Assembly: GCA_965215275.1 (NCBI GenBank)
Contig: OZ244044.1
Span: forward strand, 384,001-448,000
Direction: 5' to 3'
DNA length: 64,000 bases
DNA from: Thermodesulfobacteriota bacterium
GTDB taxonomy: Bacteria > Desulfobacterota_D > UBA1144 > Nemesobacterales > JAJCZQ01
A program made the position numbers and the translations under genes. Every line of letters begins with the position of its first letter. Position 1 is the first letter of the stretch. This document shows, one piece after another, positions 13,704 through 53,654 of this stretch. Under the pieces are notes generated by a model, which saw only the letters and a program-made list of their open reading frames with translations, was not told the DNA's origin and did not search any database.

Positions 13704-15584
13704 GAAAGGACCTCATTGCTATGCATTTATCCGAGATCTTCTTTTCCTTCTGATAACTACTGACACGGGTATAAGCATCAGACATGCCACTGCTCCGAAA
13801 ATATCAGAAGCAGCGCTGCTCTGATCCGAGACGGCACATCCTCCTCCACCTCCGCCATTACCTGACGTTGGTGGTGGAACCGTTACACTGAGCATGAAAC
13901 TCACATCATCTGTATCTCCATTCCTGTCCGTTACCGTATACATGTAAGTTCTTGTTGATGCACTCCTGGGTGTGCCACTTATCCTTCCGGTGGTTTCGTT
14001 CAATCTCAATTCAGGAGGTAAGGGAGGCATTATACTGTATCTTAACGGTGCATTCCCTCCCGTTGCAGCAGGAAGCCTTATTGGACTCCCACTGTACACA
14101 TGAACTTCTATCATATCACTGCCAAATTCCGGTCTGCTGTCCTCTTCCACTGTTATACTGAACGTTAACCCTTCCATTTCATTATCCTCGTCAGCAGCGC
14201 TCCATGTATGATCAGTCTCAGACGTTGCAGCAGTCGGTGTCCCGCTTATAGTTCTGGTGGTTTCGTTAAAATCCAGTCCATCAGGTAAACCAGGCGTTAA
14301 ACTGTAAGTTAAGTTTCCATTCCCTCCCGTTGCCTCAGGCAGCACGAACGGTGTTATCGGAATTCCTGCTATGTATTCCTTATCCTCTATCATCTCACCG
14401 CCGAAACTCGGTATTGTGTTGGGTTCATTTCTTACAGTGATATGGAACATCAAAGTTCGAGCAGGTCCACCTGCACCGGTAGTAGCAGTATACGTATAGG
14501 TCCTCGCATTCTGTGTAGCAGTCGGTGTTCCGCTTATAACCCGGGTAGCAGGATCAAAACTCAATCCAATAGAAGATAAAACAGGAGTTAAACTGTACGT
14601 TACCGTTCCATTATGTCCAGTTGCCTCAGGCAGCGTTTCCATTACTGCCGTCCCGACCGTATACACCTTGCCTTGTATCTCAACGCCTGAAAAGTGTGCT
14701 CTTACGGCAAGATCGAACATCACCTCCACCGCAGTTCCGTTACCGTCTGTAACGGTATACGTATAGGTCTTCAAAGGCGTTGCAGCAGTCGGTGTTCCGC
14801 TTATAACCCGGGTGGTTCTGTCAAAGGTCAATCCGGCAGGTGGGGCAGGGGTCAGACTGTAGGTATACGGAGCAGTACCTCCCGTAGCAGCAGGCAGCGT
14901 TAATGGTGTTACTGGTCTTTCTGCCAGGTACAAAACAGGAGAAGATACCTGCCCGTCAAAGGACAGGGCCGTTATCGTAATAGAGAAGGTGCGAGTACCC
15001 GTGTCCAGATCATCGTCCATTGCCCTATACGTGTAAGTTCGACCAGGAGCAGCTATGGTCTCGGTTGGTGTTCCGCTTATAACCCGGGTGTTTTCATCAA
15101 AGTCCAGTCCGGCTGGTAAACGAACAGGGGTCAGGCTGTAGCTTACCGTTCCATTACCTCCCGTTGCCTCAGGCAGCGTTACCGGAAGGTTTGCCGATGT
15201 CCCTTGAACATATGTCTGATCAGGGATAGTCTCGCTGAAACTCGGCACTGAATTAGCTTCTATCGTATAAGAGAAGGTCAGAGTATCAGAATCACCGTCA
15301 TCAGTATCCGAGTCAGAGTCAGTTACCTTGTAGGTATAGGTTTCAGTCAGAGGCAGCATATTTGGAGCAACGTTCAATGTCCCGCTTATCTGTCGGTTGT
15401 TGCTGGTAAAGGTCAATCCAGCAGGCAAGGCAGGAGTTATACTGTAATTTAAATTTCCATTCCCGCCATCTGCCACAGGCATTCCCAGCCTTATTGGTCT
15501 GCCGTTACCAAACGTCTGATCCCTCACCTGCGTATCGCCGAAGTCCGGAACGTCAGCTGCAGCTCTTATCCTTATCCTGAACTC
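13704..15584. repeat. 1881-bp inverted-repeat arm (partner 22716..24596)
   Basis: 3' halves of A and B near-identical; only 3 amino-acid differences seen. Confidence 0.92.
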
Positions 15585-17600
15585 TATATCAGCCACATCA
15601 TTGGTTTCTAAATCTGTAGCTCTAATCGTATACTCAGTCTCCTCCAACGCTTCCATAGGTGTGCCAGTCATTCTCCAACGGGGAATACTGATGCTCAATC
15701 CACGAGGAAGAACAGTAGGAATTACACGGTAACTTCTTCTCCCAGACCCTCCTGTTAGAGGAGGTAAATCTAATGGTGTTATCTGAACTCCTTCTGTATA
15801 AACCTGATTAGGGATCGTTGCACCGCTAAAGGTTAGATCATGATGTTTAGGACCTGTCTCACTGCCAAGGGATGTAAAAATATCCCCCTTCCCGTGCCCG
15901 TAGACCTTAATGCTCCAGGAGTGTAAGGTAAAAGTATTTTCTTCATCTGCTTCATCTCCGGAAGCAGTATCGGATATATCAAGGGTCCATTCTCCGGAAG
16001 GGTCTTCTCCGAGGTGTTTAGCCGACCCGAAACGATGTGTTCTTCTTACATAACTGATCTCAGCGTCTTCTTCCTCACCTGAAAATTCCCGGACAAGTTC
16101 AGAAACTGTACCGGAAGGAGAGGTTATCCGTATATTGAGGTCCTGTAAGCAGTCACACGAGAGAACGAGTTCTACCTCAACGAATTCCGTAAATATTTCC
16201 TCCAGGTCCGAAATCATAAGTGTGGAGACAAGGACCCCGTCCGCTTCTCCTTCTCCATCAGGGATCGTCAGTTCATTATCTGAAGAAGCTGTAACGGTCC
16301 TCATTTCACCAACGCCTTTCCAGCTTCCGGCAAGCTCTGCGGCTGCTTCTGCGTCTACCACGCCAAAACCATACCTGGGACTATAATTATATCTTTCCAC
16401 GTCAGAACCGTATTTAACGGCTCCTGTCTCCCAGCTCGGATCAGAAACGTCGTTCTGCCGTGCTGAACCCGCAAGTATGAGCTTTATATCCCTCCAGCTC
16501 AGCTGTCCGTTTATCTCTCTCAGCAGTGCCGCCACCCCTGCAACCTGTGCTGCTGAAAGGAACGTTCCGGAAGTTACAACGTAATCGTCGTTGTTATCAG
16601 TGGTTACAATATCAGAACCAGGTGCACATACCCATAGATTTACTCCCTCTTCTGAAAAAATACTCTTCTTTCCAAAGCCGTCCGTTGAACAAACGGCCGT
16701 TACTCCGTAATAGCTGGAATATTCAGAAAAATTAGCCTGATCTCCGCTCTCATGCCCGTCCCCTGCTCCCCGGACATAAAATATTCCCCTGCCGTAAAAC
16801 CCTTCCCTTATACCCTCTTCCACTCCCTCTTCCACTCCCTCTTCCCACTCAGCTGAAGCACTCTGAAGAAAAACTCCGTCCTCCCGTCCCCGGTCGCTGA
16901 CGGACACTGCCGTTATTTCATTGTTGCGGACCATTGCGTCCGCTTCCCCGGGATCACCGGATAACCTGTAACTGCATACATTCGCACCGGGTGCAACTCC
17001 CCTTGCTCCCGATCCGTTGTATCCAGTTGCTGCAATTACTCCTGCCGCTCGTGTTCCGGTAAAGGATGAACCGTCAGACAGATCAACGCTTTCTGAACTG
17101 TTTTCTTCAGAACTGTTTTTTCCAGAAAGATCATAGTTCAGTCCGGAACGGACGTTTGCAGAAAGGTCCTCATGTGAAAGGTCCTCATGTGAAAGGTCCT
17201 CATGTGAAAGGTCCTCATGTGAAAGGTCCTCATGTGAAAGGTCCATACCGTCACTTACTATTGCTACATTAATTCCGGAACCGTATACGCCATCGTTCCA
17301 CACTCCCTCTGCGTTTATATCCTCTCCTGCAGTTATTTCCTTTCCTGAATAAATAAACTGCCCAGTGTTCTTCAGATGCCACTGACATCCGTATAACGGA
17401 TCTTCTGTGTCTGCACTGTTACCTCTGCATCCGGAGAACGGGTCCTTTATGCTGCCCTGTCCCCTTGTATCAACGGATATAAAACACAGAAGAAAAAAGA
17501 CAAAGAAAAGTATGAACCGTCTGCCGTTCCGGCGGGAACTGCCCGTTAAACTACGACGTTGATGGGGGGGGGGATAGAACTCATCATGTTTTTCATACAT
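13719..17600 (-). CDS. Paralog A: catalytically dead kexin-like S8 + P-domain + Ig-like repeats + Gly-Cys-TM anchor; in frame (C10)
   Basis: VAIVSDG / TGTRAAG / SGTFLSA replace D/H/S; LSWRDIK, YGFGVVDA and P-domain GEDPSGEWTL present; ISGTPT repeats; C-terminus GGGGGCAVS...IRRKRR. Confidence 0.9.
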   Translation of the reverse strand: MYEKHDEFYPPPHQRRSLTGSSRRNGRRFILFFVFFLLCFISVDTRGQGSIKDPFSGCRGNSADTEDPLYGCQWHLKNTGQFIYSGKEITAGEDINAEGVWNDGVYGSGINVAIVSDGMDLSHEDLSHEDLSHEDLSHEDLSHEDLSANVRSGLNYDLSGKNSSEENSSESVDLSDGSSFTGTRAAGVIAATGYNGSGARGVAPGANVCSYRLSGDPGEADAMVRNNEITAVSVSDRGREDGVFLQSASAEWEEGVEEGVEEGIREGFYGRGIFYVRGAGDGHESGDQANFSEYSSYYGVTAVCSTDGFGKKSIFSEEGVNLWVCAPGSDIVTTDNNDDYVVTSGTFLSAAQVAGVAALLREINGQLSWRDIKLILAGSARQNDVSDPSWETGAVKYGSDVERYNYSPRYGFGVVDAEAAAELAGSWKGVGEMRTVTASSDNELTIPDGEGEADGVLVSTLMISDLEEIFTEFVEVELVLSCDCLQDLNIRITSPSGTVSELVREFSGEEEDAEISYVRRTHRFGSAKHLGEDPSGEWTLDISDTASGDEADEENTFTLHSWSIKVYGHGKGDIFTSLGSETGPKHHDLTFSGATIPNQVYTEGVQITPLDLPPLTGGSGRRSYRVIPTVLPRGLSISIPRWRMTGTPMEALEETEYTIRATDLETNDVADIEFRIRIRAAADVPDFGDTQVRDQTFGNGRPIRLGMPVADGGNGNLNYSITPALPAGLTFTSNNRQISGTLNVAPNMLPLTETYTYKVTDSDSDTDDGDSDTLTFSYTIEANSVPSFSETIPDQTYVQGTSANLPVTLPEATGGNGTVSYSLTPVRLPAGLDFDENTRVISGTPTETIAAPGRTYTYRAMDDDLDTGTRTFSITITALSFDGQVSSPVLYLAERPVTPLTLPAATGGTAPYTYSLTPAPPAGLTFDRTTRVISGTPTAATPLKTYTYTVTDGNGTAVEVMFDLAVRAHFSGVEIQGKVYTVGTAVMETLPEATGHNGTVTYSLTPVLSSIGLSFDPATRVISGTPTATQNARTYTYTATTGAGGPARTLMFHITVRNEPNTIPSFGGEMIEDKEYIAGIPITPFVLPEATGGNGNLTYSLTPGLPDGLDFNETTRTISGTPTAATSETDHTWSAADEDNEMEGLTFSITVEEDSRPEFGSDMIEVHVYSGSPIRLPAATGGNAPLRYSIMPPLPPELRLNETTGRISGTPRSASTRTYMYTVTDRNGDTDDVSFMLSVTVPPPTSGNGGGGGGCAVSDQSSAASDIFGAVACLMLIPVSVVIRRKRRSRINA
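17161..17244. repeat. 15-bp in-frame tandem repeat x5.6 encoding (LSHED)n
   Basis: GAAAGGTCCTCATGT units; the dead paralogs have a single copy. Confidence 0.95.
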
Positions 17601-17635
17601 TCTTGTATTCTACTTCCGTTCTGATGTAATGTCAA
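17564..17635 (-). promoter_or_regulatory. Promoter TTGACA-N17-TAGAAT, 6 nt before ATG 17600, plus a C10 tract (17564..17573)
   Basis: Read directly; no Shine-Dalgarno, consistent with a leaderless mRNA. Confidence 0.75.
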
Positions 17636-17821
17636 GTATGAACTTCTTTTTCTTTTCTTTCCTGCAATGATAAAAATATTCAGGATGTACGGATCATTCC
17701 CTTTTTTATCCCGTTCACTGTAATTGACGGTATTCAGTTTCCACTGATAATAATAAAGGGTAAAATACAGCCTGTAAACCGTTCAGGGTAATACCCATTT
17801 TTCAGAGGAGGTTCATAATAA

Positions 17822-20300: not shown

Positions 20301-20381
20301 TCAAATACTGTTGATGAATGATCCCTACATCCTGAATTATTTTTATCATTGCAAGAAAGGTAAAGAAAAAGAAATTCATAC

Positions 20382-20538
20382 TTGACATTCGTTCATAATA
20401 CAAAGTAAAATATCAATGTTATGAAAAGATCAAATATAAAAAAGCGTATCTCCATTACCCCCCCCCCCGTGTATACCAGACCTTTCAGTTGTACACGGGT
20501 ATCCTGCAATGACAATGCCTGAGCTTATCCCCCCCCCC
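20382..20538 (+). promoter_or_regulatory. Promoter TTGACA-N18-TAAAAT, ATG 20421, and two poly-C tracts (C11 20458..20468; C10 20529..20538)
   Basis: Read directly; ATG 20421 hits TGA at 20520. Confidence 0.75.
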
Positions 20539-23500
20539 ATCAACGTCATAGTTTAACGGGCAGTTCCCGCCGGAACGGCAGACGGTTCATACTTTCCCTT
20601 GTCCTTTTTCTTCTGTGTTTTATATCCGTTGATACAAGGGGACAGGGCAGCATAAAGGACCCGTTCTCCGGATGCAGGGGCGTCAGTGCAGATACGGAAG
20701 ATCCGCTGTACGGGTGTCAGTGGCATCTGAAGAACACGGGGCAGCTTGGTTTTTCCGGAAAAGCAGTAACAGCAGGAGAAGATATAAACATAGAGGGAGT
20801 GTGGAACGAAGACGTATATGGTTCTGGAATTAACGTAGCAGTAGTAAGTAATGGAATAGACCTTTCACATGAGGACCTTTCTGCAAACGTCCGTTCCGGA
20901 CTGAACTGGAGTTATTCCGAAGAAAACAGTTCTGAAAGCGGTGACCTGTCTGATATTTCATCCTTTACCGGAACACGAGCGGCAGGTGTAATAGCAGCTT
21001 CTGGATATAACGGACTGGGAGTAAGAGGAACTGCACCTGGTGCGAGTATATACAGTTATAAGTTAACTGATGATATCAGGGAAGCGGACGCAATGGATGC
21101 AAGGGATGCAATGGTCCGTAATAAGGAAATAACTGCAGTATCGGTTAACGACTGGGGACCGGAAGATAAATATTCTCTTCATCAGGCATCATCTGTCTGG
21201 GAAGAAGGAGTGGAACTTGGAATAAAGAAAGGGTTTTATGGGAAAGGAGTGTTTTACGTCCGGGGAGCAGGGGACGGGCACGAGAATAACGATCAGGCTA
21301 ATTTTTCTGAATATTCTAATTACTACGGAGTAACTGCCGTTTGTTCAACGGACGGCTTTGGAAAAAAGAGTGTATTTTCAGAAGAGGGAGTAAATCTATG
21401 GGTATGTGCACCTGGTTCTGATATTGTAACCACTGATAACAACAACGAATACGTTGTAACTTCCGGAACATTTCTTTCAGCTTCACAGGTTGCAGGGGTG
21501 GCAGCACTGCTGAGAGAGGTTAATGGAGAACTGAGCTGGAGGGATATAAAGCTTATACTTGCGGGTTCAGCACGGCAGAACGACGTTTCTGATATTAGCT
21601 GGGAGACTGGAGCTGTTAAATACGGCTCTGACACGGAAAGATATAAATATAATCCTAAGTATGGTTTTGGCGTGGTAGACGCGGAAGCAGCTGTAGAACT
21701 TGCCAGAAGCTGGAAAGGCGTTGGTGAAATGAGAACCATTACAGCTTCTTCCGATAATGAACTGACAATTCCTGATGGAGAAGGAGAAGCAGATGGGGTC
21801 CTTGTCTCCAGACTTATGATACCGGACATGGAAGAAATATTTACGGAATTCGTTGAGGTTGAACTTGTTTTTTCTCATGACCGATTACCGGACCTTAACA
21901 TACAGATAACCTCTCCTTCCGGGACAGTATCGGAACTTGTAAGGGAGTTTTCAGTTGAGGAAGAAGACGCTGAGATCAGTTACCTGAGAAGAACACATCG
22001 TTTCGGGTCGGCTAAGCACCTCGGAGAAGACCCTTCCGGAGAATGGACCTTAAAGATATCTGATACTGCTTCCGGAGATGGAGAAGATGGGACCTTACAC
22101 TCCTGGAGCATTAAGGTATACGGGCATAAGAAGGGGGATACCGCTGCAGACCTTGCTAAGGAGATAACTACTAAAGCTTTAAATTGGGGCGGACAGACAG
22201 TTCAGGATCAGGTGTACAGAGTAGGAACTCAGATAGCACCGTTACAGCTGCCTGAGGCGACCGGGGCAGAAGGAATAACGTACAGTATAAAGCCTGGTTT
22301 ACCTGCTGGGCTGGAGTTTAACGATACCACCAGAGTTATAAGCGGAACCCCAACTAAATCGCAGTCTAATGAACGTTATCAAATTGTTGCCAGAGACGCA
22401 GACGGGAACGTGAAGGGTTTAGCGTTCCATATAAGGATAAGGTTCCGTAACTCCACGGTACCGAGTTTCAGCGATACCATCCCGGATCAGAACTATGTAA
22501 CGGGGAGATCAATAACGCCACTGGTGTTCCCTCGTGCAACGGGAGGGGATGGTCAGTTAAGGTACACTTTTGACGGCACTTTAACTAACTTACCAAATGG
22601 ATTGAGCCTTTCCAGGAATCCGTTCAGGATAATTGGAACACCAGGTAGTGGTAGTGCGGGGACAAGTACCTGGCAATATACCGCTACTGACACAGACGGG
22701 GATACTGCTACACTTGAGTTCAGGATAAGGATAAGAGCTGCAGCTGACGTTCCGGACTTCGGCGATACGCAGGTGAGGGATCAGACGTTTGGTAACGGCA
22801 GACCAATAAGGCTGGGAATGCCTGTGGCAGATGGCGGGAATGGAAATTTAAATTACAGTATAACTCCTGCCTTGCCTGCTGGATTGACCTTTACCAGCAA
22901 CAACCGACAGATAAGCGGGACATTGAACGTTGCTCCAAATATGCTGCCTCTGACTGAAACCTATACCTACAAGGTAACTGACTCTGACTTGGATATTGAT
23001 GACGGTGATTCTGATACTCTGACCTTCTCTTATACGATAGAAGCTAATTCAGTGCCGAGTTTCAGCGAGACTATCCCTGATCAGACATATGTTCAAGGGA
23101 CATCGGCAAACCTTCCGGTAACGCTGCCTGAGGCAACGGGAGGTAATGGAACGGTAAGCTACAGCCTGACCCCTGTTCGTTTACCAGCCGGACTGGACTT
23201 TGATGAAAACACCCGGGTTATAAGCGGAACACCAACCGAGACCATAGCTGCTCCTGGTCGAACTTACACGTATAGGGCAAGGGACGATGATCTGGACACG
23301 GGTACTCGCACCTTCTCTATTACGATAACGGCCCTGTCCTTTGACGGGCAGGTATCTTCTCCTGTTTTGTACCTGGCAGAAAGACCAGTAACACCATTAA
23401 CGCTGCCTGCTGCTACGGGAGGTACTGCTCCGTATACCTACAGTCTGACCCCTGCCCCACCTGCCGGATTGACCTTTGACAGAACCACCCGGGTTATAAG

Positions 23501-24581
23501 CGGAACACCGACTGCTGCAACGCCTTTGAAGACCTATACGTATACCGTTACAGACGGTAACGGAACTGCGGTGGAGGTGATGTTCGATCTTGCCGTAAGA
23601 GCACACTTTTCAGGCGTTGAGATACAAGGCAAGGTGTATACGGTCGGGACGGCAGTAATGGAAACGCTGCCTGAGGCAACTGGACATAATGGAACGGTAA
23701 CGTACAGTTTAACTCCTGTTTTATCTTCTATTGGATTGAGTTTTGATCCTGCTACCCGGGTTATAAGCGGAACACCGACTGCTACACAGAATGCGAGGAC
23801 CTATACGTATACTGCTACTACCGGTGCAGGTGGACCTGCTCGAACTTTGATGTTCCATATCACTGTAAGAAATGAACCCAACACAATACCGAGTTTCGGC
23901 GGTGAGATGATAGAGGATAAGGAATACATAGCAGGAATTCCGATAACACCGTTCGTGCTGCCTGAGGCAACGGGAGGGAATGGAAACTTAACTTACAGTT
24001 TAACGCCTGGTTTACCTGATGGACTGGATTTTAACGAAACCACCAGAACTATAAGCGGGACACCGACTGCTGCAACGTCTGAGACTGATCATACATGGAG
24101 CGCTGCTGACGAGGATAATGAAATGGAAGGGTTAACGTTCAGTATAACAGTGGAAGAGGACAGCAGACCGGAATTTGGCAGTGATATGATAGAAGTTCAT
24201 GTGTACAGTGGGAGTCCAATAAGGCTTCCTGCTGCAACGGGAGGGAATGCACCGTTAAGATACAGTATAATGCCTCCCTTACCTCCTGAATTGAGATTGA
24301 ACGAAACCACCGGAAGGATAAGTGGCACACCCAGGAGTGCATCAACAAGAACTTACATGTATACGGTAACGGACAGGAATGGAGATACAGATGATGTGAG
24401 TTTCATGCTCAGTGTAACGGTTCCACCACCAACGTCAGGTAATGGCGGAGGTGGAGGAGGATGTGCCGTCTCGGATCAGAGCAGCGCTGCTTCTGATATT
24501 TTCGGAGCAGTGGCATGTCTGATGCTTATACCCGTGTCAGTAGTTATCAGAAGGAAAAGAAGATCTCGGATAAATGCATAG
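20421..24581 (+). CDS. Paralog B: dead S8 + P + Ig repeats + anchor; phase-OFF as assembled (frame open from 20523, ORF track start 20799)
   Basis: VAVVSNG / TGTRAAG / SGTFLSA; signal peptide RRFILSLVLFLLCFISVDTRG is in frame upstream of 20799 but has no in-frame start. Confidence 0.85.
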
Positions 24582-37640: not shown

Positions 37641-37725
37641 TTGACATTAGTTCATAATACGAAGTAAAATATCAGCATTGTGAAAAATTCAAACATAAAA
37701 ACGCGTAGTTCCATTACCCCCCCCC
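37641..37725 (+). promoter_or_regulatory. Promoter TTGACA-N18-TAAAAT, GTG 37680, and a C9 tract (37717..37725)
   Basis: Leader MKNSNIKTRSSITPP is homologous to the B, C and F leaders; C10 would be in frame. Confidence 0.72.
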
Positions 37726-40051: not shown

Positions 40052-41177
40052 CGGGTGAAATTTTCCGTCAGTATATCTATAGGTTGCTGATGTCGTACCT
40101 GTAGTTTATGCTTTCAATGAAAAAGATATATACACCATTATTAACAGCAAATATCAATTCGTTGAATAGAACGGGTGTATTACGCCATATGTTTTATGCC
40201 CAGATTTTTTCAAGTATGATTTGCAAGGCGTGGTAGATCATCAGTCAGGAAATGGTCGTCTGGAAAGCATAAAATACAATTCCCCAGCGAATATCAAGCA
40301 ATGATAGGGGTCATCTGCGTTTTATATGTCCAATACGAGCAAATCACCGGGTTCAAATTGTCTGGAATTTTTAATAGTTTACCCCTGTCGGTATCATAAG
40401 CATTTCCAGGATATTGAAATACAGATAAGGTATTTTCCATAACTGCATTGTCTTTTTTACCAACATCAATATAGGATACTTATTCATAAACACTTCTGAT
40501 ATAAAAAGGGGTTCCGATGGTTTTAATAACGAGAGAGATATGTAGAAACACATTAGTGGCTTCTGAGAAATTTAATGGTTAACGGATTTATAATTACTAA
40601 GTCTTTATCTGAGACCTGCTCTTCCTTCTGATCACTACTGACACAGGTATCAGCATCAGACATGCTATTACTCCGAACAGTCCAGAAACAACGTCGTTCT
40701 GGTCGGAAATTGCACATCCTCGCTTGATATTCGCTGGGGAATTGTATTTTATGCTTTCCAGACGACCATTTCCTGACTGATGATCTACCACGCCTTGCAA
40801 ATCATACTTGAAAAAATCTGGGCATAAAACATATGGCGTAATACACCCGTTCTATTCAACGAATTGATATTTGCTGTTAATAATGGTGTATATATCTTTT
40901 TCATTGAAAGCATAAACTACAGGTACGACATCAGCAACCTATAGATATACTGACGGAAAATTTCACCCGTCAGGTGCCTTTGAAAGGACAGTATTGCCAA
41001 GTCTTTATCTTAGACCTTCTCTTCCTTCTGATCACTACTGATACGGGTATCAGCATCAAACATGCCATTACTCCGAGAATATCAGAAGCAACGCTGCTCT
41101 GCTCGGAGACAGCACATCCTCCTCCACCTCCACCAACTTCAGTATCTGGTGGACGATTCACTACCCTGATACCGAAC
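39844..41177. repeat. 456-bp inverted repeat (39844..40299 / 40722..41177) with a 422-bp spacer
   Basis: Anchor-coding ends of D and E plus about 250 bp of 3' non-coding DNA are reverse complements. Confidence 0.92.
40597..40721 (-). pseudogene. Orphan C-terminal anchor cassette
   Basis: Reads RGCAISDQNDVVSGLFGVIACLMLIPVSVVIRRKSRSQIKT* with no upstream body. Confidence 0.75.
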
Positions 41178-43630: not shown

Positions 43631-44398
43631 GCACTTCGTTTGCAGCTATTGTGATACCGAACGTCAGATCATCCGTATCCCCATCTTCATCCGTTACAGT
43701 ATATGTATAAGCCGTTCTGCTCGCTGCAGTGGTCGGTGTCCCGCTTATCACTCGGGTATCAGGATCAAAGTCCAGTCCAGTCGGTAATGGAGGCGTTATA
43801 CTGTAAGTTAATGGAGCATTCCCTCCCGCTGCCTCAGGCAGTGTTACCGGAAGGTTTGTTGCTGTTCCTGCTATGTACTCCTGATCATCTATCGTATCAC
43901 TGAAGCCTGGCACTTCGTTTGCAGCTATTGTGATACCGAACGTCAGATCATCCGTATCCCCATCTTCATCCGTTACAGTATATGTATAAGCCGTTCTGCT
44001 CGCTGCAGTGGTCGGTGTCCCGCTTATCACTCGGGTATCAGGATCAAAGTCCAGTCCAGTCGGTAATGGAGGCGTTATACTGTAAGTTAATGGAGCATTC
44101 CCTCCCGCTGCCTCAGGCAGTGTTACCGGAAGGTTTGTTGCTGTTCCTGCTATGTACTCCTGATCATCTATCGTATCACTGAAGCCTGGCACTTCGTTTG
44201 CAGCTATTGTGATACCGAACGTCAGATCATCCGTATCCCCATCTTCATCCGTTACAGTATATGTATAAGCCGTTCTGCTCGCTGCAGTGGTCGGTGTCCC
44301 GCTTATCACTCGGGTATCAGGATCAAAGTCCAGTCCAGTCGGTAATGGAGGCGTTATACTGTAAGTTAATGGAGCATTCCCTCCAGCTGCCTCAGGCA
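41168..44398. repeat. 279-bp (93-aa) tandem array, about 11.7 units, one unit 253 bp
   Basis: Antisense ORF starts recur every 279 bp except 43450 to 43703 (253 bp). Confidence 0.97.
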
Positions 44399-47057
44399 AC
44401 TCTACAGGTGTTATCGGACTGCCTGCTATGTATTCCTGATCAGCTATCTTTTCACCGCTGAGGTCTGGCATGATGTCAGCTAATATAGTGATCCCGAACG
44501 TCAACGCGGCTGTATCTCTATCTTTGTCTGTTACAGTATATGTGTAAGTAGTCTTACTCATTGCAGTAGTGGGTGTGCCGTTTAGCACTCGGGTAGCACT
44601 GTTAAAGATAAAACCATCCGGCAATAACGGATTTAGTCTATAAGTTAATGTTCCATTCCCTCCCGTTGCCCCAGGCAGCGTTACCGGTGTTATAGGAATT
44701 CCTGCTATGTACTCCTGGTCATCTATCTTTTCACCGCTAAAGGTTGGCATCGCGTCTGCCAGTATCGTGATACCGAACGTCAGATCATCCGTATCCCCGT
44801 CTTCGTCAGTTACGGTATACGTGTAGGTATTCTCAGGCGCCGCAGTGGTCGGCAGACCGCTTATTACTCGGGTAGCAGGAGCAAAACTCAATCCAGTCGG
44901 CAATGTCGGAGTTAAAACGTAAGTTAATGTTCCATTCCCTCCCGTCGCCTTAGGCAGCTTTACAGATGTTATCGGACTACCTGCTATGTACTCCCGATCA
45001 CCTATCGTATCACTGCCAAAGTCCGGTATTGTGTCACCCTTCTTATGACCATAAACTTTAATGCTCCACGAGTGTAAAGTCCCGGTATCTGCCTCTTGAG
45101 TATCAGTGATATTCAAACTCCATTCTCCAGCAGGGTCTTCTCCCAAGTGTCTGGCTGAACCAAAACGATGGGTTTGATCGGTATAACTAAAATCATCTCT
45201 TAATAATACTCTTTCGACGTCGTCCGTACTTTCACTAAGAACACTGGACTCTTCTACAAATCGCCTGACCAGCTGCGACACGGTACCGGCAGGGGACGTT
45301 ACCTGTATATTTAAATCCGGTAAGAAAGTGTGAGAAAGAACGAGTTCAACCTCTGCAAATTCCATAAATGAAAGTTCCTCACTATCGGGTACGGTCAGCG
45401 TGGATACAATTGTTCCGTCTGTTCCACCTGTGTGATCGAGGATCGCTGTATCCCCGTCTTCGGAAACGAACGTCCGAGTTGCCATTGCTCCAACGCGGTC
45501 CCAGCTTCCCGCAAGTTCCACTGCCGCCTCGGCATCCACTACCCCAAAACCGTACTTTGGATTGTAATTATAACTGTCCGTATCAGAACCGTATTTGAGT
45601 GCTCCCATCTCCCAGTCAGGGTCAGAAACGTCGTTCTGCCGTGCTGAAGCCGCCAGGATCAGCTTCAGGTCCCTCCAGCTAAGGTCACCGTTTGCCTCCC
45701 GCATCAGTGCCGCAACCCCTGAAACCTGCGCAGCTGAATATGACGTGCCACTGACCCTCAAAGCATAGCGGTCCTTATTATCCGTCGTTGTAATATTCAA
45801 ACCCGGAGCACATACCCACAGATTTACTCCCTCTTCCGAAAAAGAACTTTTAGTCCCGTCACCATCTACCGAACAGACGGTAGTTACAGCGTAGTAGTTA
45901 GAGTATTCATCAAAATTAGCTTGATCGTATTCATGGGCAGCATTTTGAGATTGAGAGCCGTATGGTGGAACAGTATCAAGCAGGTCGTGCAGATAACGGA
46001 ACCTGTCATACCCGTCTCCAGCCGCCCAGACGTAAAATACTCCCTTACCACCGAACCCTTCCCTGATACCCGTTTCTACACCTTCCTCCCACATGGCCGA
46101 AGCACTCTGAAGAACCGGTATATCCTCCGGTCCCCAGTTGTTACTGGAAACCGCCGTTACAATATGATTACGGGTCATTGCATCTTTCGCGTTAGCATCA
46201 CTGAAATTACCTGCCAAATTATAACTATAGATGCTCGCCTGTGGTGCTACACCTCTCACACCAAGCTGGTTATCACCCACTCCTGCTATAATGCCTGCTA
46301 CTTGTGTACCATGAGAACTTGAAGGGTTGAATACATTTCTGTTTCCAGAGTAATAACGGTTCAGGCTGGGATTTACATTGGCAGCTAGGTCTTCATGATC
46401 GGGGTCCATACCATTATCTACCACAGCCACGTTAATTCCATTTCCAAATACTGCATCATTCCAGACCCCCTCTATGTTTATATCTTCTCCGGCGGCTATT
46501 GCCTGCCCGTTAAAACTCAGCTGCCCCGTATTTTTCAGATGCCACTGACACCCGTATAAGGGATCATTGGTAAAATTGGTAGTAATGCCTCTGCAATCAG
46601 ATAGCAAAGTATTATAATCAGTATCTGTTGCAACTGTAAGCCGGTAACTATCAGCACCGCTGCTTCTCACAACGATATAGTACGTTCCGGGTCTGAGGCG
46701 GGTTTGTATAGTGGCCATACCGGACATAGTCACTTCAGTAGTACTTGCTATCAGATCATCATTGCTGTCACAAAGCTGTAAACTGTATTCTCGATTATTA
46801 TTGGTGAAGGTTGTCTCTATTTCTACATTGATGTCAGATGCCGGGGCTATCTGAAAATATTCCAGTCCACCGGCACTTTCAAAACTTCCATCGTGTGCCG
46901 CTGCGTCCACTGTCAATGTGGCTTCAACCGTTGCACTGGAGTCGCAATTATTATCACTGGTCTGACCATATGCACCTATGGACATAAAACATAGAAAAGA
47001 AATTAACAGTAAAACTGCTGGTATGATATTCCTTGCAGTAACGATGAATTTTTTCAT
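43581..47057 (-). CDS. Paralog E: kexin-like S8 protease with intact triad, N-terminal PPC-like domain, P-domain and Ig repeats; truncated before the anchor
   Basis: VAVVDNG, SHGTQVAG, SGTSYSA; oxyanion WAAGDG; RBS AAGGTGA before ATG 47057. Confidence 0.9.
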   Translation of the reverse strand: MKKFIVTARNIIPAVLLLISFLCFMSIGAYGQTSDNNCDSSATVEATLTVDAAAHDGSFESAGGLEYFQIAPASDINVEIETTFTNNNREYSLQLCDSNDDLIASTTEVTMSGMATIQTRLRPGTYYIVVRSSGADSYRLTVATDTDYNTLLSDCRGITTNFTNDPLYGCQWHLKNTGQLSFNGQAIAAGEDINIEGVWNDAVFGNGINVAVVDNGMDPDHEDLAANVNPSLNRYYSGNRNVFNPSSSHGTQVAGIIAGVGDNQLGVRGVAPQASIYSYNLAGNFSDANAKDAMTRNHIVTAVSSNNWGPEDIPVLQSASAMWEEGVETGIREGFGGKGVFYVWAAGDGYDRFRYLHDLLDTVPPYGSQSQNAAHEYDQANFDEYSNYYAVTTVCSVDGDGTKSSFSEEGVNLWVCAPGLNITTTDNKDRYALRVSGTSYSAAQVSGVAALMREANGDLSWRDLKLILAASARQNDVSDPDWEMGALKYGSDTDSYNYNPKYGFGVVDAEAAVELAGSWDRVGAMATRTFVSEDGDTAILDHTGGTDGTIVSTLTVPDSEELSFMEFAEVELVLSHTFLPDLNIQVTSPAGTVSQLVRRFVEESSVLSESTDDVERVLLRDDFSYTDQTHRFGSARHLGEDPAGEWSLNITDTQEADTGTLHSWSIKVYGHKKGDTIPDFGSDTIGDREYIAGSPITSVKLPKATGGNGTLTYVLTPTLPTGLSFAPATRVISGLPTTAAPENTYTYTVTDEDGDTDDLTFGITILADAMPTFSGEKIDDQEYIAGIPITPVTLPGATGGNGTLTYRLNPLLPDGFIFNSATRVLNGTPTTAMSKTTYTYTVTDKDRDTAALTFGITILADIMPDLSGEKIADQEYIAGSPITPVELPEAAGGNAPLTYSITPPLPTGLDFDPDTRVISGTPTTAASRTAYTYTVTDEDGDTDDLTFGITIAANEVPGFSDTIDDQEYIAGTATNLPVTLPEAAGGNAPLTYSITPPLPTGLDFDPDTRVISGTPTTAASRTAYTYTVTDEDGDTDDLTFGITIAANEVPGFSDTIDDQEYIAGTATNLPVTLPEAAGGNAPLTYSITPPLPTGLDFDPDTRVISGTPTTAASRTAYTYTVTDEDGDTDDLTFGITIAANEVPGVHSRNSNKPSGNTA

Positions 47058-47088
47058 TAGATTAATCACCTTTTAAGATTTTGTTCTG

Positions 47089-47240
47089 TTAATGTAGTAA
47101 TTTAGGGGAATTATAAAAAAGCTGACAAAACCCTACTGACGGGGGGGGGTGGGGATATGGAAACACGCTTTTTACATCTGATCTTTTTATGAAATTTTTC
47201 ATAATTCTGATATTCTACTTCTGCTCTGCCGTGATGTCAA
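47089..47240 (-). promoter_or_regulatory. Promoter TTGACA-N17-TAGAAT with a 37-aa leader ORF (ATG 47202) containing a C9 tract (47141..47149)
   Basis: Same leader architecture as the other paralogs; an in-frame TAA just upstream of E prevents fusion. Confidence 0.6.
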
Positions 47241-47251
47241 GTATAAATTTT

Positions 47252-47450
47252 GGGAATTATATGCAATAGTGACGAAGTTTGAATCATCTCCTGTTTTTTG
47301 AACGTTCAGCAATGTCTTTCTTTACATCCTTCTTTTTTTAACGTTGACAGGCTGGAGGATAGCTTTTTATCTCCTTTTGTCGGTTCATAACTGCCCGGTA
47401 AGACCTCTATTGTTTTTTTCCTGTCCGTCATTGCAAGTTTCTTTTATTTG
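47252..47450 (-). mobile_element. Right-end remnant of IS-1 (TIR + decayed passenger ORF)
   Basis: Reverse complement of about 13305..13537 with substitutions and a deletion. Confidence 0.82.
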
Positions 47451-47541
47451 AATGGACATAAAACGTATAAAAGAAAATAACAGTAAAACTACTGATATGA
47501 TATTCCTTAAGGTGATACTCTTACAGTTATTCATGCCTGTT

Positions 47542-48153
47542 TTACTTGGTTACAACTTCCTGCCACCAGTTAGGACTGGACAAAATCACTCCATCCTTCC
47601 CTGACAGTTCGTTCGCAAGATGAAGAGATGCAAAACCTGATTCGGTATTCACGAAAAACGCATTCTTTGTAAAATCCATCTTCGATACTCCATCCATAGA
47701 TATTCCATTACCTGCAAAAAAAACTTCCATCTCCTCTCGGCTCAATTCAGGTGCAAAAACAAGCACAACCCCTCCAGGCAAAGTCATTAACTGTCCTGAC
47801 TGCCCCCGAAACACCTGATAATCATCCTCACCGTTTTTAACCTGCTTCCTGACTATGCTCATCTGTCCACTCCTTACAATTACTTCATCCTCTGGCCTGT
47901 TCACACTGCTCTTCTGTACCGCTAATCCCGGCTGTACGCGAACCCTTCTGGTTATATCCCCGTCCTGCCATATATAAACGGTGCCTTCTTCAGAGGCTAC
48001 CGCACCTCTGTCTGTTTTCAGCATATCCCTGTTATAAACCCCAGGCTCCGCTGAATGAGAACTGTCCAACACATACACAACGCTCATTGATAATATCAAT
48101 GCAGTAACGATGGACCCTGAAATAAACTTATGCAAGAGGTTAGTTAAATTCAA
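47542..48153 (-). CDS. Exported protein, probable stand-alone S8 chaperone/propeptide
   Basis: N-terminal hydrophobic signal; prodomain-like end (GGVVLVF...ASLHLANEL...VILSSPNW); directly upstream of the only active S8; own promoter TTGACA-N17-TACATT at 48186..48214. Confidence 0.55.
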   Translation of the reverse strand: MNLTNLLHKFISGSIVTALILSMSVVYVLDSSHSAEPGVYNRDMLKTDRGAVASEEGTVYIWQDGDITRRVRVQPGLAVQKSSVNRPEDEVIVRSGQMSIVRKQVKNGEDDYQVFRGQSGQLMTLPGGVVLVFAPELSREEMEVFFAGNGISMDGVSKMDFTKNAFFVNTESGFASLHLANELSGKDGVILSSPNWWQEVVTK

Positions 48154-48221: not shown

Positions 48222-48457
48222 GGGAATTATATGCAATAGTGACGAAGCCTGAAGCATTTCCTGTTTTTTGAACGTTCAGCAATGTGTTTCTTTACATCCT
48301 TCTTTTTAACGTTGACAGGCTGGAGGATAGCTTTTGCTAAGTTGTATCAATAGAAAACGGATGCTCTTTCTCTTATTCTGTCGGTTCATAACTGCCCGGT
48401 AAAATCTCTGTTGTTTTTTTCCTGTCCGTCATTGTAAGTTTCTTTTATTTAAGTGGA
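48222..48457 (-). mobile_element. Second right-end remnant of IS-1
   Basis: GGGAATTATATGCAATAGTGACGAAG followed by a decayed passenger ORF. Confidence 0.82.
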
Positions 48458-48796
48458 CTATTTAATGACCTAAAAAGTTCTAACTGCTTGTTATCATTAA
48501 CTGTTAAATTTAGATCAGTTTTAAGTTTAGGATAATATACTTTTAGTTTAAACAGGATGTTCAGAAAATTACATATACTCATTAATGCCTTCTGTTGCAT
48601 CTCTTGTTGTCTCAATTATTTTTCCGCAGTAATGAACTTCTCAGTTCAGAGACCGTTCGTCCCGTTCTTTCAACTCGTTCAGAACGTCAGGACGGTTTTC
48701 AATACACGGTAATACAGTCGTTCTTTTCAACGAAGTGATAACTGATATAAAAAAACCGGGCTGTAATTCTTTCTCGGAAATGCCTTTGAAAGGACC

Positions 48797-51700
48797 TCAT
48801 TGCCAGGTCTTTATCTGAGACCTTCTCTTCCTTCTGATCACTGCTGATACGGGTACAAGCATCAGACATGCCACTGCTCCGAGCATATCAGGAACAATGC
48901 TGCTCTGATCTGATACAGCACATCCTCCTCCGCCTGAATCAGTACCTGACCCTGGCGGGCTTCCCGTTGGTGGTGAAGGAGCAGATGGAACCTCTACACT
49001 GAGCCTGAAACTCACCTCATCCGTATCTTCATCCCTGTCCGTTGCCGTATACGTGTAAGAAGCAGCAGATGATGCACGGGTGGGTGTCCCACCACTTATA
49101 CTTCTGGTGCTGCCGTTAAAACTCAATCCAATAGAGGATAAAGCAGGCGTTATACTGTAAGTAACCGGTAAATTCCCTCCCGCTGCCTCTGGCAGTTCTA
49201 TTGTTTCCCCCGTGTACACCTGATCTGGTATTGTCACACCGCTGAAGTCAGGTTTGCTGTCTTCTTCCGTTGTTATACTGAACGTTAACTCTGCTGTATC
49301 TTCATCTAAGTCTGTTGCTCTATATGTATACTCAGTCTCAGACGTTGCAGCAGCAGGTGTGCCACTTAACACTCTGGTATTTGCGTTAAAGTTCAATCCG
49401 GTTGGTAACACAGGTGCTATACTGTAAGTTAACGGTGGATTCCCTCCCGTTGCCACGGGCAGCGTTACCGGCGTTATCTGACTGACTGCTATGTACTCCT
49501 GATCATCTATAGTCTCACCGCCGCCGAAACTCGGTTCCGTGTCAGCTAATACAGAGATGCTGAACATTGTCTCATCACTATCTCCATTGCTGTCCGTTAC
49601 CTTATACGTGTAATCAGTAGCAGGTGTTGTGGTCGCGGGCGTGCCGCTTATTACTCGGGTGTTACTGTCAAAATCCAATCCATTTGGTAAAAAAGGTCTA
49701 TTTAAAACAGTTAATCTTAATCTATAGGTTAATGGAGCGTTCCCTGACGTTGCCTCTGGCAGCGTTACCGGAAGACCTGCAGTTGTCCCTTCAATATATA
49801 TCTGATCAGGGATTGACCTATTACCAAAACTCGGCATCGAGTCAGTTTCTACCGTAATAAAGAAGGTCAGACTATCAGAATCAGCATCATCAGTATCGGT
49901 ATCAGAGTCTGTTACCTTATAAGTATAAGTTCTTCTGGAAGTTAGAGTATCTGGAGTTCCAGTTATCTCTCGGGTGTTACTGTTAAAGTTCAATCCATTA
50001 GGTAAAGCAGGAGTTATACTGTAATTTAAAGTTCCATTCCCTCCCGTTGCCTGAGGCAGTGTTAACGTTACTGCTCTGCCGTTAATAAACCCCTGATCCT
50101 CTACCGTCTGACCGCCGAAGTCCGGTGCGTTACGTTCTACCGTAATAGAGAAGGTCACACTATCTTCATCACCGTCGTCGTCTCTTGCAGTATACGTATA
50201 ATGCCAAGTTCGAGGAAGGATATCTGGTCTGACGTCGATTGTCCCGCTTATCACTCGGGCAGCAGGATCAAAACCCAATCCATTAGGTAAAGCACCGGTT
50301 AAACTGTAAGTTAAAGTTCCATTCCCTCCCGTTGGCTCAGGCAGGGTTAACTTTACCGTTCTGCCGTTAACGTACACCTGATCCTCTGCCGTCTCACTGC
50401 CGAAGTCCGGCATCCTTTCTCTTTCTACCCTGATACTGAAAATTAATTCACCTTTATCTCCATCTGCGTCTGTAGCAGTATATTTATAGCCTCTCCTTAT
50501 ATGTCCATCTGGACCTATTAAACGGACTCTGAGTGTCCCGCTTATAGTTCGGGTGTCATCGTTCCAGTCCAATCCACTATGTAAACTAAGCTGACCTGAA
50601 TTGTCATTATCCGTTAAACTGTAAGTATATGGAGTATTCCCTCCCGTTGCTTCAGGCAGGATTAACGTTACTGTTGAACCATTACCATATGTCTTATGAG
50701 GAATTGTTCCAGTAAAGGCTAAAACTTTAGGAATTGCCTCTTTAGCAAAGTCCGATACGGTATCCCCCTTCCCGTGCCCGTATACCCTAATGCTCCAGGA
50801 GTGCAGGGTCCCCGTATATTCTGCTTCTTCATCTCCGGAAGCAGTATCGGAGATCCCAAGGGTCCATTCTCCGGAAGGGTCTTCCCCGAGGTGTTTTGCC
50901 GACCCGAAACGATGTTTTTTTCTCAGGTAACTGACGCAGTTTTTTTCTTCATTCGAAGGTCCCCTTGCAGACTCCCGCACAAGCTCGGACATTGTCCCGG
51001 AAGGAGAGGTTATCTGTATATTGAGGTCCTGCAGGCAGCCACAAGAGAAAACAAGCTCCACCTCAACGAACTCCGTAAACGTTATTTTTTCAAGGTCAGG
51101 TATCACAAGTCCGGAAACAGGGACCCCGTCCGCCTCTCCTTCTCCATCAGGGATCGTCAGTTCATTATCTGAAGAAGCTGTAACGGTCCTCATTTCACCT
51201 ACGCCTTTCCAGTTTCCGGCAAGTTCTGTGGCTGCCTCCGCGTCCACCACGCCAAAACCATACTTATTACTGTATCTGTATCTTTCCACGTCGGAACCGT
51301 ATTTTACCGCTCCTGTCTCCCAGCTCGGATCAGAAACGTCGTTCTGCCGTGCTGAACCCGCAAGTATAAGTTTTATATCCCTCCAGCTCAGCTGGTCGTT
51401 TATCTCTCTCAGCAGTGCCGCCACCCCTGCTGCCTGTGCTGCTGAAAGGAACGTTCCGGAAGCCGCGGCGTAGCCGCCACCGTTATCCGTGGTCACGATA
51501 TCGGAACCCGGTGCACATACCCAAAGATTCACTCCCTCTTCTGAAAATAAACTCTTCTTTCCAGAACCGTCAGTTGAACACACCGCGGTTACGCCATGGT
51601 AATTCGAATGTTCATTAAAACCGGCCTGATCGTTATTCTCGTGCCCGTCCCCTGCTCCCCGGACGTAAAATACCCCTTTACCGTAAAACCCTTCCCTTAT

Positions 51701-52364
51701 ACCCTCTTCCACTCCCTCTTCCCACTCAGCTGAAGCACTCTGAAGAAAAACTCCGTCCTCCCGTCCCCGGTCGCTGACGGACACTGCAGTTATTTCATTG
51801 TTGCGGACCATTGCGTCCGCTTCACCGGGATCACCGGATAACCTGTAACTGCATATGTTCGCACCGGGTGCAACTCCCCTTGCTCCCGACCCGTTGTATC
51901 CGGATGCTGCTATTACGCCTGCAGCCCGCGTTCCGGAAAGGGATGGACCGTCGGAAGGACCGTTCCCTTCTGAACCGTTCTTTTCAGAAAAACTGCAGTT
52001 AGGTCCGGAACGGACGTTCGCAGAAAGGTCCTCATGTGAAAGGTCAATGCCGTCACTTGCTATTGCCACGTTAATCCCGGCACCGGATATCCCGTCGTTC
52101 CACACTCCCTCCACGTTTATATCCTCTCCCGCAGTCATTCCCTTTCCGGAAAAACCGGGCTGCCCAGTGTTCCTCAGATGCCACTGACATCCGTACAGCG
52201 GACCTTCCGCGTCTGAACTGATACCCCTGCATTCAGATAACGGACCTTCCAGGCTACTCTGGCCCTTTGCAGCTATTACCATTAGCAACAGAAGAAAAAA
52301 GATTAAAGAAAGGACTGACTTAGACGGGGGGGGGGGTAATGGAGATACGCTTTTTTACGTTCAT
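48797..52364 (-). CDS. Paralog F: dead S8 + P + Ig repeats + anchor; phase-OFF (C11 at 52326..52336; ORF track start 52288)
   Basis: ATG 52364 reads MNVKKRISITPPPV*; C10 would join PSKSVLSLIFFLLLLMVIAAKG; triad S/S/F. Confidence 0.85.
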
Positions 52365-52406
52365 TCGTTAGGGGGATTATATAGTTAAGTACCGAAGATA
52401 ATATAA

Positions 52407-52574
52407 CTATTTAGATTTATTAGATCTTTTACTTTTTGTTTTTTCATTGATATTTTTTTGTTTCTGTTTCTGAATAAATTGAGGATCAGGAGATAAAACT
52501 GCTCTTGTTATTTCCTCTAAAGTCCCTGGTATATGAGGAATTATCTTTTGTTTTCTACCTGCTGATCTTGCCAT
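52407..52574 (-). CDS. Small basic passenger ORF of IS-2 (55 aa)
   Basis: MARSAGRKQKIIPHIPGTLEEITRAVLSPDPQ... starts immediately after the transposase stop. Confidence 0.5.
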   Translation of the reverse strand: MARSAGRKQKIIPHIPGTLEEITRAVLSPDPQFIQKQKQKNINEKTKSKRSNKSK

Positions 52575-52575
52575 T

Positions 52576-53514
52576 TTAACTTGTCAGTTCCTTGTATCTA
52601 AGATGCTTTCCTGACAATCCTTTTATTACTTTTTCAATCTGATCCATTGTTGGTAATGGTCGGATATTATGTCTGCCTGCATACTCATCTACATAACGCT
52701 GCAGGTGTTTCTTACTCATCTTGTGATACACTCCCATGAACCCTCTTTTAAGCATAGACCAGAAACTTTCCATCCCATTGGTATGTGCCTGACCTTTTAT
52801 ATACTCTCCTGCACTATGATCAACCGTCTCGTGCTTATATCCCTTCTTACTCAGTCCGCTATACCCCAAATTCTCATCTGTATAGACCGTTGCTCCATCG
52901 GTTACTGTTTCTTTTATCATACTTTGCAGTTCTTCTCTTTTTACAGTCTCAGTTACCTTTGCTTTTACTTTCTTGTCTACCCTTGACTTAATACCTGCTA
53001 CCGAAGATTTGGTCTTAGTGCTTCTGCCCTGTGTCCCCTTTGCCTTCTTGCTTGCGTGTTTGTTCCTTTCCAGTCCTCCAACACGGGTCTCATCCATCTC
53101 TACCGGAGACAGTAATGAATCTTCCGACTGCTCTTCAAACGCCTTTCTTGTTCTGTGTCCTGAATACCAGGCTGTCGTTTGCGTAACCCCTGTATCCCTC
53201 CCCGGTTTACAACTCGATACCCCTTTCAGATCAGTATTCAGCAAGTAAACGGCCATCAGCCATTTATGAAGGGATATCCTGCTTGCAGATAATAACGTGC
53301 TGGTTCTTATACTGAAATGCCTGTCACGATCCTTACGTCTGTATGGCGTTGTCGGATGTTTTGATCTTGAAGTCCTTACGCTTCCACAACGGGGACAGTG
53401 TCTGTCCTCTCCTTCTTTTCCCCATAATGTGCTTTCAAACCACTCTCTTGCTGATACCTCGTCTGGAAACTTCTTAAAAAATTCATACAAACTGACTTTT
53501 TTCTCTCGTACCAT
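52576..53514 (-). CDS. IS1595 transposase with a decayed Zn ribbon/HTH
   Basis: EMDET, YTDE and HTNGMESFW motifs; second CxxC pair reads RKDR. Confidence 0.88.
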   Translation of the reverse strand: MVREKKVSLYEFFKKFPDEVSAREWFESTLWGKEGEDRHCPRCGSVRTSRSKHPTTPYRRKDRDRHFSIRTSTLLSASRISLHKWLMAVYLLNTDLKGVSSCKPGRDTGVTQTTAWYSGHRTRKAFEEQSEDSLLSPVEMDETRVGGLERNKHASKKAKGTQGRSTKTKSSVAGIKSRVDKKVKAKVTETVKREELQSMIKETVTDGATVYTDENLGYSGLSKKGYKHETVDHSAGEYIKGQAHTNGMESFWSMLKRGFMGVYHKMSKKHLQRYVDEYAGRHNIRPLPTMDQIEKVIKGLSGKHLRYKELTS

Positions 53515-53625
53515 ACTCTTTCCTCTCCTGCATATTTCTTTATCTTATCTACTGTTTTAACATCTTTTAATTGATAAATTTACTCATTCCCGGTACCTAA
53601 CTATATAATCCCCTTCGTTAGTTTC

Positions 53626-53654
53626 AGTGTAGCTAACTGCTGTTTATTTGTCAA
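53626..53654 (-). promoter_or_regulatory. Displaced promoter of paralog F (TTGACA-N17-TACACT)
   Basis: Removing IS-2 and one TSD places it 11 nt from ATG 52364. Confidence 0.7.

Follow-up and report, generated by a model that had tools for sequence, protein, structure and literature searches.

A 64,000-nt stretch of contig OZ244044.1 from an uncultured Thermodesulfobacteriota bacterium (hereafter the window) carries six genes, labelled A to F, that encode protease heads of the subtilisin-like S8 family on repeat-built stalks, and it raises the question of why a bacterium would keep putative surface proteases that have mostly lost their catalytic residues and lie behind runs of C. An earlier note had read these genes as a phase-variable family of surface pseudoproteases organised around one active kexin-like protease (E) and its chaperone. 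Our analysis suggests that they probably belong to a genome-wide phase-variable surface repertoire, in which mostly non-catalytic S8 heads on immunoglobulin (Ig)-like stalks are each switched at random by a 5′ poly-C run and the dead head serves as a binding or decoy domain.

A domain scan of the window open reading frames (ORFs) confirmed that A to F all encode an S8 head, a P domain and He_PIG repeats, and that all three catalytic residues are replaced in A, B, C, D and F (Asp by Ser, His by Thr or Ser, Ser by Phe). The same five genes end in a Gly run, a Cys, a hydrophobic stretch and basic residues, a tail missing from the assembled frame of E. To place these genes in the genome, a single 1.99-Mb contig that is 99.9% complete, S8 + P-domain paralogs with a tblastn score above 300 were taken as family members. 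This gave 57 paralogs with S8 head, P domain, Ig stalk and Cys tail, together occupying 8.8% of the genome. Fifty of the 57 copies lack an intact triad: 29 are triple-dead, 10 have His replaced by Arg, 7 read Asp-Arg-Ala and 4 are otherwise defective. The other 7 are intact and, with the exception of E, have the canonical oxyanion Asn (6 of 7). Since the members span the whole genome and include seven intact triads, the family is neither a six-gene local system nor built on one active protease, and a single hub protease was rejected; E, the proposed hub, has no anchor in its assembled frame and carries Asp at the oxyanion position.

The dead heads are under purifying selection. Among the 29 triple-dead heads the median pairwise ratio of non-synonymous to synonymous substitution (dN/dS) was 0.26, with a maximum of 0.43 (403 of 406 pairs, three with dS below 0.05 being dropped), and the medians were 0.38 in the 10 His-to-Arg heads, 0.39 in the 7 Asp-Arg-Ala heads and 0.37 in the 7 intact heads. 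All medians for dead classes (0.26–0.39) are far below 1, and the outcome expected of plain pseudogenes was not seen. All 29 triple-dead heads have Ser or Thr at the former His site, encoded via three codon types, and the reading frame reaches the tail in 52 of the 57 genes. A, B, C, D and F thus combine loss of the catalytic residues with a domain kept under selection, as expected of pseudoproteases; the idea of a tract-gated repertoire of conserved non-catalytic S8 heads on variable stalks is supported by these ratios and by the one tract, described below, that differs between samples.

The C and G runs of this genome have a bimodal length distribution. C runs of 6, 7, 8, 9 and 10 nt number 36, 0, 6, 57 and 21, and G runs of 6, 7, 8 and 9 nt number 42, 0, 0 and 11; over both bases there are none of length 7, 133 of at least 9 and 139 of at least 8. 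Because of this gap at 7, the tracts are not due to chance. Eighty of the 139 runs of at least 8 lie at the 5′ ends of family genes. A 5′ C tract is present in 50 of the 57 genes, 28 of which carry two. The tract is found in 49 of the 50 defective copies, in E and in 0 of the 6 canonical active copies, although these kin are not independent, and the one defective copy without it carries G runs at its start and within its head. The tract of E, a C9, lies in a short upstream ORF and joins E's frame at none of the lengths tried (8–11). Outside the 5′ ends of the family there are 59 further tracts, many at the starts of ORFs that by eye resemble DNA methyltransferases, TPR proteins and lipoproteins. 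As judged by sequence, these genes make up a very large candidate set for phase variation.

In family genes the start codon lies 8–10 nt downstream of the −10 box of a conserved promoter-like motif. From a start at this position 8 of the 50 tract genes are in frame as assembled, and from any start 11 of 50, leaving about 80% off. In two-tract leaders, the first tract sets whether the leader fuses to, ends just before or misses the second ATG, and may thereby act as a tuner of level. Within the window, tracts were found at all five dead genes, but the claim that A alone is in frame holds only through a non-standard start: A is open only from the ATG at 17600, 6 nt past the −10 box, while the family-position ATG at 17596 (+10) is out of frame.

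To follow tract length across samples, we turned to public sequencing runs, of which 16 were listed and 6 contained half or more of the sequence words; six of them were examined, all as contigs and not as reads. Tract 2 of B is C10 in the assembly and in run X1, which leaves B off, and C11 in X2 and X4, which puts B in frame from its second ATG. In X4 the depth of the C11 contig is that of a single copy (42.6 vs 40.7) and no C10 form was listed. A 2166-nt contig near B is identical in X1, X2 and X4 despite the difference at the tract. At tract 1 of B, one contig of lower depth in X4 has an extra C (15.2 vs about 41 for single copy). No such difference was seen at the A tract, which is C10 in five of five runs (X1, X2, X4, X5 and X6, from three studies) on bridging contigs. 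Run X1 may be the source of the assembly; its contig across both B tracts is at low depth (177 vs 557) and was excluded from the heterogeneity evidence. Indel rows at the C tracts were set aside, as up to 17 loci share those flanks, and opposite-strand joints in the run contigs were set aside as cross-matches between paralogs. Taken together, a frame-setting 5′ coding homopolymer, tracts far above chance and a length difference between samples are what is expected of simple-sequence-repeat contingency loci. Some X5 contigs match window positions 17521-17732 (5′ region of A) or 20196-20411 (5′ region of B) exactly and then diverge, and may represent different paralog mosaics.

Aeromonas sobria protease ASP needs the adjacent ORF2, whose C-terminal Lys enters the ASP catalytic site (PMC5638518). 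The gene next to E, first described as propeptide-like, resembles such an external chaperone in its modelled fold. It ends in Lys, and the genome has only two copies for 57 heads. By sequence, the gene had no Pfam ORF_2_N match and nothing useful in PDB, Pfam or NCBIfam, and a Foldseek search with its model yielded nothing within a threshold of E 0.001. Its Atlas match was a cluster with ORF_2_N on 48% of the members (0.91, 186 features), and the model (pLDDT 72.6) aligned with the PC1/3 prodomain (Z 8.4, rmsd 2.5, 72 residues) and with both domains of ORF2 (3wqb_B; Z 6.7, rmsd 2.9, 91 of 99), scores that are moderate when taken alone. A homolog adjoins the S8 gene at 19 of the 28 outside loci that were scanned. 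These are mostly from Dehalococcoidia, and in them the readable catalytic motifs were intact by our own patterns and no 5′ tracts were seen. The Atlas match, the fold alignments and this pairing support a free-standing chaperone beside E. On the protease side, the best PDB match of E's head was Aeromonas ASP (3hjr, 3wqb; E 7e-40), again a kexin-like S8 and P domain without an N-terminal propeptide, and the dead heads likewise have none, beginning at most about 25 residues after the signal region.

The predicted complex of dead head C with the chaperone scored 0.77, as compared with 0.01 for the best control, with contact agreement of at least 81% between runs and a partner pLDDT of at least 80; of 157 solved pairs 116 attain this score mark, as do 2 of 215 mismatched pairs. 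Because a related complex is already solved, this prediction shows likeness only and not binding. Modelled by itself with AlphaFold, dead head C came out poorly (pLDDT 43), and that model was not used. The family is probably folded with the help of the two shared chaperone genes. The second chaperone-protease pair (G000:513689-519597) has a G11 ahead of the protease start and a frameshifting G13 within the head.

Within the predicted interface lie the head positions once occupied by the catalytic Asp and His and the oxyanion position, the last of which is Asp in A, B, C, D and F. At the 40 head residues in predicted chaperone contact, taken as the predicted cleft rim, the ratio of non-synonymous to synonymous variation (pN/pS) was 0.75 in triple-dead heads, as compared with a median of 0.30 for shifted sets, of which 3 of 485 matched or exceeded it. 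No such excess was found in intact or His-to-Arg heads, where 136 and 298 of the 485 shifted sets, respectively, reached the rim value. In so far as the modelled contacts hold, the raised ratio fits diversification of a binding rim or, equally, relaxed constraint.

Paralog E had been proposed as an active protease beside its propeptide-like gene. The intact Asp-His-Ser triad, as in active S8 proteases, and the chaperone-like neighbour fit this, but the oxyanion position holds Asp in place of Asn. The convertase PC2 is active despite an oxyanion Asp, so that E may yet be active. Near 43600 one 279-nt unit of the stalk array lacks 26 nt between 4-nt direct repeats, and the resulting frameshift ends E before its anchor as assembled. 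The current tail of E is an inverted copy of that of D, and an orphan start with signal-peptide remnant after the chaperone stop, cut by an insertion sequence (IS) end, matches the layout of the uninterrupted pair at genome 518-519 kb. Read from the sequence, the orphan 5′ remnant, the orphan tail and the D-derived tail record a rearrangement of the E locus.

The three inverted repeats linking A with B, D with F and D with E were confirmed (Table 1). In two runs the contigs inside the A/B arm reach about twice the depth of single-copy sequence (1087 and 1217 vs 557; 188 and 192 vs 101), and the repeat is therefore real and no assembly error. As read from the sequence, inversion between A and B or between D and E would yield the same proteins, and only inversion between D and F would exchange stalks between promoters. 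Five gene pairs genome-wide share 1.5-2.5-kb blocks at 97% identity or more, and three of these pairs lie on the same strand at distances of 53-891 kb, a pattern that suggests gene conversion or duplication. Inversion finds no support on either ground and was set aside as the main switch; no recombinase family was found among the 31 window ORFs scanned, and the public contigs are shorter than the arms. IS1595 ends, said to concentrate at the promoters, do lie upstream of B, D, E and F, but genome-wide their motifs, taken from the window elements, precede 11 of 57 family genes and 75 of 794 other long ORFs, a weak enrichment of about twofold (Fisher p 0.036), and IS ends were rejected as a core or designed part. 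The 430-nt 3′ flank of B (window 24581-25007) is 95-97% like the flanks past three other paralogs, so that duplications reach beyond the genes.

The Cys tail suggests surface anchoring, an assignment inferred from sequence. A GlyGly-CTERM anchor was rejected, as the 99.9% complete genome has no rhomboid (PF01694) match that could be a rhombosortase and the tail matches no such model. The genome does have one CPBP gene and one secretin, as expected for a Synerg-CTERM-like Cys sorting signal. This only CPBP/Rce1-like gene (G000:680830-681114, L076) lies directly 5′ of family member 23 and is a candidate sorting enzyme.

By HisS, the nearest named relatives are Thermodesulfobacteriota MAGs at 74-75%, a neighbourhood that may be that of Dadabacteria. 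None of the relatives searched showed the expansion: 1 of 40 genomes gave a weak 32% match to E's head, and 6 of 119 genomes of the class matched the family profile, all across the Ig stalk, in samples whose fragmented genomes lose repeats. Metagenomes from JGI held five distant loci at about 43% identity. Members, both dead and active, were found on other contigs, the dead ones on P0017, P0024 and P0021, which are unrelated contigs. In a same-genus genome, three loci (G001 L057:1286, L064:1317 and L075:1329) place similar Ig stalks on lipoprotein-like proteins, two of the three with LRR ends, and each has a G9 run inside the −35/−10 spacer, so that this different stalked family may be switched through its promoter spacer. 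Many long C runs also occur in a further genome of the order (G005), and in G027 (L060:2828) a C9 run lies at the 5′ end of an Ig-stalk gene.

The results above show the first part of a path. The ancestral module is a chaperone gene with a propeptide-less ASP/kexin-like protease downstream, and in this genome the protease was multiplied while the chaperones stayed at two. Copies lost the triad in several combinations yet are still under purifying selection, and the dead copies have frame-setting tracts; most are off, and one tract varies between samples. For the rest we propose that switching would be reversible within a population, with two-tract leaders needing the second tract in frame and the first perhaps tuning the level. 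The products may be exported by Sec, folded in trans with the shared chaperone and anchored through the Cys tail by a CPBP-type enzyme. Heads, stalks and tails appear to be reshuffled by gene conversion and by stalk gain and loss, a step of which the shared blocks give a partial record, and the varied cleft rim may bind host or predator molecules. In its fullest form, the proposal is that a chaperone-dependent kexin-like protease was made into a 50-member, randomly switched library of stalked, cleft-diversified binders, folded in trans by two chaperones and controlled beyond on and off by two-tract leaders, an Opa-like antigen or adhesin system built from pseudoenzymes; we regard this form as tentative.

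Several observations weigh against a phase-variable repertoire of dead heads. Only one of the three tracts read in detail differed at consensus level, and within samples of one study; what is observed is a frame-changing difference between samples, and contigs alone cannot show reversible switching. Depth around B is raised in X2, where an extra copy could contribute, although X4 is single-copy there. Whether A is on or off depends on which start codon serves. The dN/dS medians come from non-independent pairs of recombining paralogs, and gene conversion can depress them; the rim pN/pS does not exceed about 1, so that relaxed constraint fits no worse than diversification. The tail scores under the cut-off of every NCBIfam sorting model, the closest being Synerg-CTERM (12.5-14.8 vs 22.5 bits).

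These points leave room for other explanations, none of which we favour. The off copies could be chiefly a silent reservoir of gene-conversion donors to a few expressed copies, with tracts that keep silence more than they switch fast; about 80% of copies are off, five pairs share the long near-identical blocks and D's tail has replaced that of E, but nearly all copies keep their own promoter motif, signal peptide and anchor and the B frame is open in two samples, and we consider this unlikely. Slightly less likely still, the stalk and anchor could be the working part, as a spacer or surface layer, and the dead head just a conserved cap, or a handle for export, that binds no variable ligand. 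The same-genus G001 combines Ig stalks of a similar kind with LRR domains and gave no match to S8, and rim variation could reflect relaxed constraint, yet the dead heads are constrained as much as the active ones and the subfamilies fix different residues at the dead sites.

It is improbable that slippage in transcription or on the ribosome carries expression through the tracts, or that proline-rich leaders act as translational sensors, all copies being made at low level with no heritable switch. Such a reading would suit tracts that code Pro runs in short leaders and the E tract that never joins its frame, but Pro does not require all-C codons, the length of the DNA tract varies between samples and the genome has no runs of length 7. 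Decay of duplicates or errors of assembly seem the most improbable account of all: 5 of 57 frames are broken before the tail and the assembly is a single contig of an uncultured organism with many IS remnants, but dN/dS argues against decay, dead members occur on unrelated contigs, and the public contigs reproduce the C10 of A, the C11+C10 of B and the doubled A/B arm, so that the A/B repeat does not prove to be an artefact. The phase-variable repertoire remains the reading that we prefer.

Every part of this system has precedent, in repeat-switched paralog families, subtilase pseudoenzymes and external chaperones; by analogy it may be likened to opa and NalP in switching, to CspC and mite SMIPPs in enzyme reuse and to ASP/ORF2 in folding. 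Opa proteins are beta-barrels. Neisseria opa genes, 11 per strain with CTTCT repeats, are likewise dispersed paralogs each frame-gated by its own repeat (PMC5320596), whereas here there are about 50 genes, poly-C tracts (two in 28 genes) and enzyme-derived stalked heads. Neisseria meningitidis NalP is a surface subtilisin-like protease under a coding poly-C tract switch (PMC5472700), but it is one active autotransporter gene, and here the dead copies are the switched ones. The ASP/ORF2 pair also has a head directly past the signal region, no propeptide and a neighbouring chaperone ending in Lys (PMC5638518); here, in contrast, the chaperone is upstream (ORF2 is downstream), two chaperones serve 57 heads, and the heads are mostly dead, stalked and tailed. 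The scabies mite SMIPP-S proteins are expanded inactive protease paralogs next to an active one, and some inhibit host complement (PMC4930577), but they are eukaryotic, trypsin-like and neither anchored nor repeat-switched, an analogy and not a homology. The anchor shares a Gly run, Cys, hydrophobic helix and basic end, and the presence of a CPBP gene, with the Synerg-CTERM/Cys sorting signals, although the tail is under all model cut-offs and its processing here is putative. In Clostridioides difficile, CspC and CspA are subtilisin-like pseudoproteases reused for ligand sensing alongside an active paralog, but they are two soluble spore proteins. To our knowledge, neither a stalk nor an expansion nor a repeat switch has been described for them. 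No report of the combination of parts was found in the open-access literature, as judged from listings and abstract openings.

The scale is extreme: a genome of 2 Mb carries 139 long C/G runs and about 50 dead proteases that are switchable. If the reading is true, an uncultured lineage would offer a clear example from bacteria of pseudoenzymes reused on a mass scale to form a variable coat. The system also makes testable the folding of dozens of clients in trans by one external chaperone, the ligand of a dead subtilase cleft, and graded expression from double tracts.

Table 1. Features of the window (positions in nt from its first letter)
Feature	Position	Strand	Description
Paralog A	13719..17600	-	Signal peptide, dead S8 (Ser/Thr/Phe), P domain, ~7 Ig repeats, Gly-Cys-hydrophobic-basic tail
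A tract	17564..17573	-	C10
Tandem repeat in A	17161..17244	-	15 nt, 5.6 copies; enlarges a loop within A's head
Promoter-like family motif	17607..17635	-	TTGACA, 17-18 nt, TA[AG]AAT; putative function
Other copies of the motif	B 20382, C 28775, D 37641, E 47240		
Paralog B	20421..24581	+	Dead (Ser/Thr/Phe), ~8 Ig repeats, tail; leader with two tracts; assembled frame off
B tract 1	20458..20468	+	C11
B tract 2	20529..20538	+	C10 in assembly (off)
Paralog C	25115..28736	-	Dead (Ser/Thr/Phe), ~6 Ig repeats, tail; off
C tracts	28672-28681, 28602-28610	-	C10, C9
Paralog D	37680..40051	+	Dead (Ser/Ser/Phe), ~2 Ig repeats, tail
D tract	37717-37725	+	C9; D off from family-position GTG
Paralog E, first frame	43581..47069	-	Signal peptide, extra N-terminal domain, S8 with Asp-His-Ser intact, P domain, stalk start; ends past frameshift
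Paralog E, second frame	40970..43498	-	Remaining Ig array and tail copied from D
E array	41167..44463	-	~12 near-identical 279-nt Ig units
Orphan anchor tail	40589..40721	-	89% like tail region of paralog at genome 519.8 kb; likely E's earlier tail
E upstream ORF start	47141..47202	-	Carries C9 tract, 47141-47149
IS1595-family end fragment	47252..47449		Between chaperone gene and E
Orphan start and signal-peptide remnant	47455..47534	-	Just past chaperone stop; likely E's earlier 5′ end
ORF2-like external chaperone gene	47542..48153	-	Predicted prodomain fold, C-terminal Lys
IS1595-family end fragment	48222..48463		Upstream of chaperone gene
Paralog F	48797..52364	-	Dead (Ser/Ser/Phe), ~6 Ig repeats, tail; off; IS end replaces family promoter
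F tract	52326-52336	-	C11
IS1595-family element	52369..53615	-	At F 5′ end
A/B inverted repeat	13704..15584, 22716-24596		1881 nt, 100%; stalk and tail identical
D/F inverted repeat	37717..39096, 50955-52334		1380 nt, 98%; tract and head
D/E inverted repeat	39656..40305, 40716-41365		650 nt, 94%; last Ig unit, tail, 3′ flank

Elsewhere in the window, a C12 run (592-603) lies four codons past an ATG behind a promoter-like motif, 3′ of an apparent tmRNA end and 5′ of DUF6361-helicase genes; similar leaders occur at genome positions 496990 and 1401695 (C26). The genes that follow (1091-7307) form a single run of DUF6361, a 638-aa ORF that is unannotated and a helicase, and by sequence they resemble a defence operon. 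A perfect AT-rich 40-nt tandem array of 8.9 copies (7515-7868) stands immediately 5′ of a Fic gene. Between A and B, a small helical ORF (19089-19412, - strand) accompanies YtoQ and HAD genes, apparently ordinary core genes inside the A/B repeat, and a 10-nt tandem repeat of 6.1 copies (31868-31928) lies between the starts of a glycosyltransferase gene and hisS.

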